Shown here in pieces: positions 27,869-47,635 of a stretch of DNA of 64,000 nt (position 1 is the first letter of the stretch; each line of letters starts with the position of its first letter). Both the position numbers and the translations under genes were made by a program. Below the pieces are notes generated by a model. The model saw nothing but the letters and a program-made list of their open reading frames with translations, searched no databases and had not been told where the DNA came from. The stretch covers positions 306-64,305 of the forward strand of contig VXME01000029.1 of the NCBI GenBank assembly GCA_009861545.1, given 5' to 3'. The DNA is from Acidobacteriota bacterium (lineage in GTDB: Bacteria > Acidobacteriota > Vicinamibacteria > Vicinamibacterales > UBA8438).

Positions 27869-30800
27869 ATGAACACCCCGACGACGCCGACGGAAGGACA
27901 GATCCTGACCGGCCCGCTCTTCAACGAGCCGATGCGCGTGGAGACCGTCGCCGAGACGGGGCCGGGGAGTTGGACGCTCGGCCTGGTCGGCACGCGGTCG
28001 GAACGATTCCGGAAGGTCTCCCTCGGGACGGCCGAGCTGGTGGGACTGACAGTTCTTGACAGCGGTTTCCGGTACGACGGAGACGGCGCGCTGCTGCGGT
28101 TGGGCCTGCAGGCGCACGCGCTCGGGATTGCTTGGGAGTTCGATCCCTACTTCGGGTTGTCGGTCTCCCGCGTGGATCCGCTGCCGCACCAGTTGGAAGC
28201 GGTCTACGACCACCTGCTGAAGCTGGCGCGCGTGCGGTTCCTGCTGGCCGACGATGCCGGCGCCGGGAAGACGATCATGGCCGGGCTGCTGATCCGCGAA
28301 CTCCAGTTGCGCGGTCTCGCGGAGCGGATCCTGGTCGTCGCGCCGTCGAACCTCGCCTTCCAGTGGCAGCGCGAGTTGCAGGAGAAGTTCGACGAGACGT
28401 TCGTGGTGCTGAAGGGAAGCGAGTTGCGCGCGCAGTTCGGCGTGAACCAGTGGATGCAGCAGCCGAAGGTGGTGACGTCGCTGGATCTTGCCAAGCGCGA
28501 GGAGATCCTGCCGGGCTTGCGGCAGGTGCACTGGGATCTGGTCGTCGTGGACGAGGCGCACCGGATGTCGGCGCGCGACGAGTCGCACAAGAGCCAGCGC
28601 TACAAGTTGGGCGAGCTGCTGCGGGATTCGTCCGACCACATCCTGCTGCTGACCGCGACGCCGCACAAGGGGGATCCCGAGAACTTCTCGCTCTTTCTGC
28701 AACTCCTCGACCGCGACGCCTACGCCGACGTGCGTTCAATCCGGCAGGCGATGGACGCTGGGCGCGCGCCGTTCTACTTGCGGCGCACGAAGGAGGCGAT
28801 GGTCTACTTTCCGCAGCGGGACGAGAACGGGGAGTGGGCGGCGCGCAAGATCTTCACGAAGCGTATTCCGAGCACCGTCGACTTCAAGATCGACGGCTCG
28901 GAGTTCGAGCTGTACCGGGAGGTGACGGAGTTCGTGAAGCGGCAGAGTATCCGGGCAGCGGCAGAGGGCAACGATCCGCGCGCCCGCGCCGTGGGCTTCC
29001 TGATGGCGCTCTACCAGCGGCGCCTGGCGTCGAGCACGCGGGCCATGCGGCGCAGCCTCGGAAACCGTGCCGACCGTCTGGAGCGCGGGCTCGCGCAGGC
29101 CGAGGATCTCGTGCGCACCGCGCCGCCGGACCTGCCGAGCATGGACGAGCTCGACGAGATGGAGGAGCGCGACCGTGAACGATTGGAGCGGTTGCTCGAC
29201 GCGATCACGCTGGCCGGAAATGCCCAGATGGTGCGCCAGGAGATCGCGGAGCTGAGAGCGCTGGCCGTCAAGGCAGAGAACGTCGAGCAGGCGGGCGTCG
29301 AGGCGAAGCTGGCCAAGTTCGAAGACCTTCTGCGCGGCCAGGGGTTCTTCGACCGCCCGGATCAGCGGTTGGTCCTCTTCACGGAGTTCAAGGACACCCT
29401 CGACTACCTCGTCGAGAAGCTCGAAGCCTGGGGCTTCAAGGTGGCGACGATCCACGGCGGCATGAAGCCGGGCGCGCGGGACGAGGCAGGGACCAGGCTC
29501 CACGCCGAGCAGCAGTTCCGCGAGGGTGCGGTCCAGGTGCTGGTGGCGACCGAGGCCGCGGGCGAGGGGATCAACCTGCAGGTCTGCAACATCCTCTTCA
29601 ACTACGACATCCCGTGGAATCCGAACCGCCTGGAACAGCGCATGGGGCGCATCCACCGCTACGGCCAGGAGAAGGACTGTCTGATCTTCAACTTCGTCGC
29701 CACGAACACCATCGAGGGGCATGTTCTCCAGCGCCTGCTCGACAAGCTGCAGGAGATCCGCGACGCGCTCGACGACGACGCAGTGTTCAACGTCGTCGGC
29801 GAGGTGTTACCCGCAGCCTATGTGGAGCGCGTCCTGCGCGACTACTACGCCGGCCGGCTCGGTGGCGAGGATCTGGAAGAGCGGCTGTTGCGGGACGTCG
29901 ACGAGGGCCGCTTCCGCAACATCTGCCAGAACGCCCTGGAGGGACTGGCGACGAAGAACCTGAACCTGGAGATGCTGGTCGAGCGGCGCGCCCGCGCCCG
30001 CGAGCGCCGGGTCGTGCCGGAGACCATCGCACGCTTTCTGCGGGACGCCGCGCCGCTGGCGCCGCTGAAGCTCGATTTCATCGGTGGGTTGGCGCACACG
30101 TTCGTGCCGGGGCGCACGCCGGCATCGCTGCGCCGCTACGAGCGCGAACCCGACTGGAGGCTGCCGGAGCTGGCGATGCGTTATCCGCGTTGCAGCACGG
30201 ATCGCGACACCGCCCAGAAGAACGCGCTCGAATGGGTCACGCCGGGCCACCCACTTTTCGAGGCCGTGCGCCGCCATGCGCGCGAGCAGGCGCTCGAGCC
30301 GCTGGCGTGCGGCGCCACCTTCTATTCGCTCGCACACAACGCGCCGACGCGGATCGACTTCTACCGGGCACGGGTGGTCGACGGACTCGGCCACGTCGTG
30401 CATGAACGGGTCTTCGCGGTGGAACTGGCCGGTGACAACGAGCCGTGCCGGTGCGAGCCGGGTGTGCTCGGCGACCTGAGCCCGGCTCCCGTCCCGGACA
30501 CGTTGCCGGCGATCGCGCACCGGCCGGAGCCGGTGTCCTGGCTCCAGGAGCACGTCCTCGTACCGTTCCTCGATGCCACGCGCGCCGAGCGTCTGGCCGA
30601 GGTCGAGCGCGTTGCGGATCACGTCGAGCTCTCGCTCACGGAGCTTCTGCAGCGGACCGACGAGGAGATCGGGCGGGCTGCCGACGACGTGGACGAGGGT
30701 CGCCAGGGCGCAGAAGGGCGACTCGCCATGGCCGAGGTGCGGCACGCGGAGCTGCTGGCGCGCCGCGAACGGCGGCGTCAGGAACTCCAACAGCAGCAAG

Positions 30801-47635: not shown

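Follow-up and report, generated by a model that had tools for sequence, protein, structure and literature searches.

A probable Hma defence array with cassette-filled intergenic slots in an Acidobacteriota bacterium

In a 64,000-nucleotide (nt) stretch of contig VXME01000029.1 from an Acidobacteriota bacterium, hereafter the window, we analysed a co-directional gene array of approximately 20 kb (27869-47635; window coordinates are used throughout). We conclude that this array is very probably one Hma system, hmaA-hmaB-hmaC, whose two intergenic slots are filled by self-sufficient defence cassettes. Gene positions were established from open reading frame (ORF) structure, from the guanine-plus-cytosine (GC) content by codon position, and from independent gene calls on a matching contig (ENA scaffold ENGE20-1_SAMN12347671_METAG-scaffold_307, 77.8 kb; 8 mismatches over the 22.8 kb compared, none inside the array), and the translated genes were searched with PADLOC models and Pfam. 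The array holds 12-13 intact genes, all on the + strand, in DNA with a GC content of about 0.60-0.69. The slot between hmaA and hmaB measures 3,899 nt and that between hmaB and hmaC 6,619 nt; a backbone of 9.2 kb carries 10.5 kb (10,518 nt) of cargo, in the form of five intact defence modules along with decayed remnants.

The backbone consists of three large genes:

27869-31303, +: hmaA, a Swi2/Snf2 helicase with a C-terminal PD-(D/E)xK nuclease (NOV_C/DUF3883), 1144 amino acids (aa); presumed restriction effector.
35203-38208, +: hmaB, a DUF1156 N6-adenine-type DNA methyltransferase, 1001 aa; presumed self-marking enzyme.
44828-47635, +: hmaC, a DUF499 ORC/Cdc6-type AAA+ ATPase, 935 aa, lacking an N-terminal HEPN domain.

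The best PADLOC match of each protein was the corresponding model of Hma, a system named by Payne et al. 2021 (PMC8565338): HmaA at 3e-168 (residues 58-1091 on profile positions 59-1131 of 1176), HmaB at 6.7e-112 and HmaC at 6.3e-100 (residues 1-832 on profile positions 1-832 of 941). Pfam assigned Helicase_C (2.3e-24), NOV_C (1.3e-21) and SNF2-rel_dom (1.3e-16) to HmaA, DUF1156 (1.6e-22) to HmaB and DUF499 (2.7e-11) to HmaC. Furthermore, the catalytic motifs are intact in all three proteins: GAGKT at residue 131, DEAH at residue 228 and D...IEVK in the tail of HmaA; motif I (PFAGGGS, residues ~134-140) and DPPY (residue 535), separated by a large insert, in HmaB; and GGGKTH (GGGKT) and LVLFDEV in HmaC. 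An earlier note, made from the sequence without database searches, had named this trio as Hma, which these matches support. Its family hallmarks (SNF2 with DUF3883, DUF1156 with DPPY, and a DUF499 P-loop) stood, but its description of DUF1156 as a Zn-ribbon was not supported: the N-terminal 180 residues of HmaB hold only a CxxxC (residues 62-66). DUF1156 has been called a helical domain (NAR 2026, PMC12839542).

The genes inserted between hmaA and hmaB form two modules:

31321-32478, +: cargo 1a, HEC-01A, an OLD-type ABC ATPase (PADLOC HEC-01A 1.2e-153; Pfam AAA_21 1.9e-35).
32475-33086, +: cargo 1b, HEC-01B (DUF4276; PADLOC HEC-01B 6.1e-65), with a GTGA overlap with 1a.
33101-35206, +: cargo 2, a 701-aa GmrSD/BrxU-like type IV restriction enzyme extended C-terminally by a Schlafen AlbA_2 domain, with its stop overlapping the hmaB start (GTGA).

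The ATG of cargo 1a (31321) stands 3 nt 3' of a GGAGAG motif. Pfam DUF4276, a TOPRIM-like domain in HEC-01B (Payne 2024), matched cargo 1b at 9.4e-5, under its curated cut-off. Cargo 2 belongs to the GmrSD/BrxU (HEC-05) family by its GmrSD_N (DUF262, 1.4e-31) and PADLOC HEC-05 (1.1e-43) matches and by its match to the BrxU structure 7p9k (E-value 2.9e-14), and it bears AlbA_2 (SLFN_AlbA_2, 1.2e-16) in addition to what defines that family. It contains the motifs DGQQR and HH..N together with an HNH-like ERHHIFP...N...N in a region covered by the HEC-05 profile, which extends to residue 525; Pfam DUF1524 gave no match, and the HNH part was seen as a motif. The GmrSD-AlbA_2 fusion returned more than 5,000 matches, of which the best 120 are almost without exception ~700 aa long with both domains, and such genes lie within other Hma loci as well as standalone.

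Between hmaB and hmaC there are six to seven intact genes accompanied by pseudogenes:

38235-39599, +: cargo 3a, an OLD-type ABC ATPase with a DUF3696-like C-terminus (Pfam AAA_15 3e-21).
39602-40069, +: cargo 3b, a predicted VapC-like PIN nuclease, 155 aa, partner of 3a in a HEC-03 architecture.
40088-40767, +: pseudogene, a truncated and frameshifted paralogue of the ATPase gene at 42129-43370 (residues ~61-265 and 395-413).
40836-~42055, +: frameshifted pseudogene of an AAA_14/DUF4143 ATPase (PADLOC candidate PDC-S01).
42129-43370, +: cargo 4a, a second HEC-01A-like OLD-type ABC ATPase, 413 aa (PADLOC HEC-01A 4.3e-48; Pfam AAA_21 4.5e-29).
43363-43992, +: cargo 4b, a DUF4276-like partner, 209 aa, overlapping 4a through ATGAGTGA (PADLOC HEC-01B 2.7e-5).
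44005-44065, +: remnant resembling the 5' portion (P-loop) of that AAA_14 pseudogene, inside a 178-nt spacer.
44171-44386, +: cargo 5a, a ribbon-helix-helix antitoxin-like protein, 71 aa (Pfam RHH_1 2e-9).
44383-44838, +: cargo 5b, a PIN (VapC-type) toxin-like protein, 151 aa (Pfam PIN_3 1.5e-11), overlapping hmaC by 11 nt.

Cargo 3a matched PADLOC NsnB (3.2e-44), PDC-M55A (2.7e-31) and, in part, the HEC-03B model (6.6e-30). Its partner 3b, which matched no PADLOC model, resolved as a predicted VapC-like PIN nuclease through four lines of evidence: 378 homologues, many with a precomputed PF01850 match; acidic residues D6, E45, D90 and D109 that are invariant in 37 sequences; an AlphaFold2 model with a mean pLDDT value of 88; and VapC toxins as the top Foldseek matches of that model (template-modelling scores 0.59 and 0.65). 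The ATPase-PIN pair is also present outside Hma, beside housekeeping genes. Because cargo 2 matched NsnA/PDC-M55C and cargo 3a NsnB/PDC-M55A, we considered a Menshen-like system split around hmaB; this candidate was rejected since each of the two genes occurs without the other and many relatives have just one. The weak HEC-01B match of cargo 4b led us to term the second pair HEC-01-like; the pair is conserved in four related loci (L003, L005, L067 and L075). Cargo 5 has a VapBC-type layout, with a small predicted DNA-binding antitoxin gene whose end overlaps the downstream PIN gene in a GTGA.

The pseudogene at 40088-40767 has lost its first 60 codons, the Walker A region and 393 nt internally, and retains 79-90% nucleotide identity to 42310-42926 and 43320-43371, with protein matches in two frames. 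In the AAA_14 pseudogene (PDC-S01 5.9e-14), Pfam AAA_14 (4.7e-21) was found on 40836-41285 and DUF4143 (2e-4) in a different frame on 41600-41932, and the codon-position GC signal likewise changes frame. A second copy of its beginning survives at 44005-44065, which matches 40886-40946 at 77% over 61 nt and at 86% over 43 nt. The repeated order of ATPase followed by AAA_14 points to a partial tandem duplication with subsequent decay.

Across both slots the cargo families are HEC-01 (twice), HEC-05/BrxU-like, HEC-03-like, PDC-S01 and VapBC, all of them known systems or catalogued candidates. The earlier note had proposed five or six modules, some of uncharacterised type; the number holds, with five intact modules plus remnants, but no module is of uncharacterised type.

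The genes are packed with almost no intervening sequence. The hmaA stop (31303) is separated from the next ATG (31321) by 17 nt, as read in the sequence, and the spacers at 33086-33101, 38208-38235 and 39599-39602 measure 14, 26 and 2 nt; stops and starts overlap as GTGA at 32475, 35203 and 44383, as ATGAGTGA at 43363, where the second HEC-01A-like ATPase meets its DUF4276-like partner, and over 11 nt at 44828-44838, where the PIN toxin-like gene runs into hmaC. Two junctions are not tight: 40070-42128, where the codon-position GC signal shifts frame and stops are present in all frames, and the 178-nt spacer at 43993-44170. The layout given in the earlier note (gaps of 2-26 nt, three GTGA overlaps, ATGAGTGA and the 11-nt overlap) proved accurate to the base, and both spacing exceptions are real; its assignment of every gene to the + strand agrees with codon-position GC, ORFs and independent gene calls, and its interruptions of 3.9 and 6.6 kb with the slot sizes measured here. 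Tight, co-directional packing of this kind fits co-transcription and guarantees co-transfer.

The note's statement that the array lacks a DUF3780-like gene, an integrase and a transposase was borne out as well: Pfam searches, gene calls and a transfer RNA (tRNA) scan found no integrase, transposase, DUF3780-type gene or tRNA in the array. Searches for non-coding features returned 0 Rfam matches, 0 tRNA genes and one trivial tandem repeat. The only repeats in the array are the gene duplications, and the spacers share no common motif; an att-like or repeated junction motif was rejected for these reasons. A mobile-element carrier was likewise rejected, given that no integrase or transposase lies within or adjoining the array in the window.

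HmaB was used to find relatives, one genome per species, which yielded 80 loci at 53-81% identity, mostly from uncultured Acidobacteriota (many Vicinamibacterales) but also from Chloroflexota, Nitrospirota, Planctomycetota, Bacillota and one archaeon. The order hmaA>hmaB>hmaC on one strand was kept in all 59 loci in which both gaps were measurable, and backbone identity in related loci was 57-95%. The gaps themselves varied widely: hmaA and hmaB are separated by 8-7,571 nt (median 1,975; 64 loci), and between hmaB and hmaC the distance runs up to 9,275 nt, the shortest case being an overlap (median 978; 67 loci). Two relatives, L052 and L023, are essentially cargo-free, and the cargo is therefore not a fixed core component. 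The expectation of a conserved backbone with variable cargo is thus upheld, with slots ranging from empty to 7.6 kb (hmaA-hmaB) or 9.3 kb (hmaB-hmaC). The load of the window would rank 4th of 60 (the window and 59 relatives), behind L003, L075 and L001; two of these genomes are from Vicinamibacterales and the third is from an unclassified member of the Acidobacteria.

A cargo census grouped the gap ORFs of the relatives into 178 clusters; it used a greedy longest-ORF rule that drops some + strand genes for spurious antisense ORFs in GC-rich DNA, and its counts are accordingly lower bounds. The recurrent families are OLD-type ABC ATPases, GmrSD-like enzymes, Schlafen/HATPase proteins, MNT-HEPN pairs, DUF433-DUF5615 pairs, Fic, DUF3644-HEPN and PHP-ABC ATPase, all defence-type as judged by their sequences. 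A further recurrent protein of 195-351 aa without a Pfam match was found solely in the hmaB-hmaC slot, in 10 relatives (e.g. L022:12283-13260), and is absent from the window; by eye its C-terminal part looks PD-(D/E)xK-nuclease-like (D...EAK).

Between relatives, DNA homology is interrupted at the edges of cassettes. In the comparison with L002, it ends at 31293, 10 nt before the hmaA stop, and restarts at 33101, the ATG of the GmrSD gene. The HEC-01A cassette of the window's hmaA-hmaB slot was found in the hmaB-hmaC slot of L003 at 81% nucleotide identity. The closest relative, L001 (DNA identity 93.7% in hmaA and 92.6% in hmaC), keeps no more of HEC-01A than its final 290 nt, together with a GmrSD gene that bears an internal deletion, and has a Schlafen/HATPase gene instead. 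In seven close relatives, homology begins at the earliest ~2-4 nt 5' of the hmaA start (27865-27867) and ends at most 9 nt 3' of the hmaC stop (47644), beyond which the flanks are unrelated; the neighbourhood of the array hence differs from genome to genome. A shared genomic context was sought and rejected on the same ground, homology among these seven being confined to ~27865-47644. A few relatives adjoin tRNA or transfer-messenger RNA genes. Recombination anchored in the backbone was also rejected as an explanation: synonymous-site identity does not rise at the slot-bordering ends of hmaA, hmaB or hmaC in comparisons with 10-13 relatives. Collectively, these sequence comparisons indicate that the three backbone genes persist amid cargo that is duplicated, replaced and degraded.

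Turnover is also visible within a population. The near-identical contigs L086 and L087 (protein P0036, two samples) differ inside the Hma locus: after the ATPase-PIN pair, L087 has a HEC-01A-like gene and a 935-aa HmaC, and L086 has unrelated genes there. hmaB is truncated or split in both.

Within the backbone, hmaB is a mosaic. In an identity profile against 15 relatives, residues ~401-520, just N-terminal to DPPY, were hypervariable, matching the description of a target-recognition insert after core strand 2 (NAR 2026); by this sequence criterion the segment is likely the target recognition domain. Residues 81-120, 401-520, 801-840 and 881-920 share 12-50% identity with most relatives and the rest 70-97%. 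Relative to L001, hmaB shows ~85% DNA identity over most of its length together with unalignable stretches, hmaA and hmaC being at 93-94%, and its synonymous-site identity drops to 26-30% in two stretches. This pattern suggests that the methylase gene has recombined internally and exchanged its target recognition domain. hmaB is interrupted by insertion sequence (IS) elements in three relatives, L050 (8325-10001), L063 (8725-10001 and 10543-11879) and L069 (8118-10001), with transposases of the DDE_Tnp_1_4, DDE_Tnp_1, ISAZ013 and IS66 types, which makes the methylase gene a repeated target of insertional inactivation. Insertions of 0.5-1 kb in hmaB were seen in L041, L066, L071, L074, L076 and L057.

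The window locus corresponds closely to published Hma, which has been reclassified as a Type-1 DUF499-centred BREX-related system (NAR 2026, PMC12839542): the same three proteins stand in the same order, no DUF3780 gene is present, and the best PADLOC matches are the Hma models. Type-1 systems are described with an N-terminal TUDOR domain in the helicase, a C-terminal RRM-fold domain in the ATPase and, in 1,370 of 2,446 taxa, an N-terminal HEPN domain in the ATPase (NAR 2026, PMC12839542); in the sequence features compared, the backbone shows no difference, HmaC of the window being the canonical variant without N-terminal HEPN. The absence of a standalone DUF3780-type gene (MtsB) among the ORFs and gene calls of the array places the locus in Type-1 and not in Type-2. 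The Type-2 system MANTIS/Gao_RL (bioRxiv 10.64898/2026.09.23.753747) has a homologous DUF499 ATPase, methyltransferase and helicase-nuclease and is the sole biochemical model for such systems; in its reconstitution, the DUF499 ATPase loads the methyltransferase, an asymmetric 6-bp site is hemimethylated, and the motor-nuclease restricts unmodified DNA. However, its effector nuclease is of the PLD or HKD type, whereas HmaA of the window ends in a PD-(D/E)xK domain, and its gene order differs too.

Hosting other systems is a published habit of Hma, as the earlier note had stated: embedded systems were reported in 62.7% of 1,485 Hma systems (Payne 2024) and in 66.5% of Hma (PMC11232893). The cargo of the window represents the same phenomenon with the same families (HEC-01, HEC-05/BrxU and, in its architecture, HEC-03; Payne et al.), and it is co-oriented with the backbone like 96.7% of published embedded cases. 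It departs from the published cases in three respects. The hmaB-hmaC slot lies beyond the maximum of three embedded genes per slot allowed in the published screen (Payne 2024); the GmrSD-like enzyme has an additional C-terminal AlbA_2; and the PIN partner in the HEC-03-like pair fits none of the PADLOC models. Comparable nesting is known from BREX with embedded BrxU (pEFER) and from PrrC in the EcoprrI type I system, where a type IV enzyme or an ABC ATPase nuclease sits inside a methylation-based host system. These are published precedents for complementary or backup layers, but the host systems are different ones and embed one module each, whereas the window array embeds five.

Several observations weigh against the reading of the array as one working Hma system with functional cassettes. 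Pfam PIN matched cargo 3b only at an E-value of 0.009, below threshold, and DUF4276 matched cargo 4b at 1e-5, also below threshold, although over profile positions 1-191 of 192. HEC-01, to which two of the five modules belong, failed to protect in its only published test (Payne 2024). HmaA alone protects against T4 through the nickase activity of its nuclease domain and HmaB had no restriction-modification-like effect on T4 (PMC11232893), so that restriction-modification logic for Type-1 is still a model; moreover, MANTIS requires its fourth small gene, MtsB, which the window array does not have. Promoter and terminator scans of the array gave counts no higher than in shuffled sequence and are uninformative for this organism. 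Finally, a contig from a sister sample (L082, SAMN12347672), otherwise identical over the compared 34828-47635, carries at its position 377 a T>G change (window 35204) that turns GTGA into GGGA and removes both the stop of the GmrSD-AlbA_2 gene and the GTG start of hmaB; gene calls on it give a GmrSD protein of 778 aa and an HmaB of 921 aa without the DUF1156 domain. This could be a natural knockout of the methylase start or an assembly error, and with the start lost in that assembly, population copies of hmaB are not all necessarily functional.

A working scheme for the array can be drawn by inference from the family literature, the locus itself being known here from its sequence. HmaB would mark host DNA by N6-adenine methylation at a short motif that its variable insert recognises; HmaC, by analogy with MANTIS, would probably load and regulate HmaB; and HmaA would use its Snf2 motor and PD-(D/E)xK nuclease to attack unmarked incoming DNA. 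Among the cargo, the GmrSD/BrxU-like enzyme may cut modified phage DNA that escapes the methylation-sensitive system, and the three OLD-type ABC ATPase modules may sense infection or anti-restriction and respond by abortive infection, with a DUF4276/TOPRIM-like partner as the putative effector in two and PIN in the third. The ribbon-helix-helix-PIN pair would act as a toxin-antitoxin module.

The cargo might instead be wired into Hma, its genes serving as backup effectors that depend on the state of Hma, for example by release when a phage inhibitor disables it, as PrrC is released in EcoprrI, and the 20-kb array would then be one integrated multilayer machine. Backup roles for embedded genes have been proposed (NAR 2026, PMC12839542; Payne 2024), and start-stop overlaps join the GmrSD-AlbA_2 gene to hmaB and the PIN toxin gene to hmaC. 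Families also prefer slots, GmrSD-AlbA_2 (10/10) and Schlafen/HATPase (9/9) lying between hmaA and hmaB, and DUF433 (13/13) and DUF5615 (9/9) between hmaB and hmaC. This preference may, however, reflect shared descent of related loci. The same modules are found by themselves in other islands or beside housekeeping genes, one cassette sits in different slots depending on the relative, L052 and L023 do without cargo, and HEC-03 and HEC-05/BrxU protect against phage when cloned without Hma (Payne 2024). We consequently regard dependence of the cargo on Hma as quite unlikely and favour self-sufficient cassettes in the slots of one Hma system. That the hma genes, broken up by insertions, are no longer functional and decay in a defence-gene junkyard ('genomic sink') without operon-level function is highly improbable: the two pseudogenes and one gene remnant in the hmaB-hmaC slot, the IS-disrupted hmaB of L050, L063 and L069 and the lost hmaB start in the sister sample speak for it, but the hma genes of the window are full length against their profiles with motifs intact, insertions sit exactly between genes and none inside them, all array genes are co-oriented with minimal spacers, and hmaA and hmaC remain 93.7% and 92.6% identical to L001.

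The surroundings of the array contain further candidate defence genes. A third HEC-01-like pair lies outside the array at 23973-25615 (+), comprising an AAA_21 ABC ATPase (HEC-01A 2.3e-18) and an ORF with a weak HEC-01B match (2.5e-4), in a segment whose GC content (0.625-0.64) is below that of its surroundings; between it and the array are ogt (25649-26161, -) and ada/alkA (26174-27841, -). Directly 3' of hmaC and convergent with it is a patatin-like phospholipase gene (47712-49013, -) that matches PADLOC phospholipase 'Effector' models at 6.7e-11. Approximately 2.4 kb 3' of hmaC, at 50050-50762 (+), a gene for an 88-aa protein is followed by one for a PIN protein, identified by Pfam PIN on a 147-aa gene call (149-aa ORF in the window).

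Viewed jointly, the loaded Hma arrays of this lineage might be integrated, co-transcribed immune 'super-operons', a possibility that we consider unlikely. In such arrays, a type IV enzyme may be translationally coupled to the methylase and a toxin-antitoxin pair to the ATPase, several ABC ATPases may serve as sensors that protect Hma from anti-restriction proteins of phages, and cassettes may swap slots by integrase-free exchange with cuts exactly at gene boundaries. Heavily loaded loci might be systematically missed by current detection rules because the published screen accepts at most three embedded genes per slot.

The main features of the array are already published: Hma itself, embedding and its quantification, 'guilt-by-embedding', the backup-effector hypothesis and every cargo family. 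The suggestion in the earlier note that the backbone acts as a landing pad or co-regulated scaffold is likewise a published hypothesis and not a new inference. Particular to this locus are the size of its load, the visible traces of cassette turnover and the AlbA_2-fused GmrSD variant. It illustrates defence-system embedding in a clean and extreme form and is a good specimen that opens no new question. A slot-shifted cassette, a partial tandem duplication, frameshifted remnants and homology breaks at start and stop codons present turnover in progress, and by virtue of these traces the locus could help in studying the origin of embedding, and it might likewise be used to ask whether the embedded modules act as a backup to Hma.

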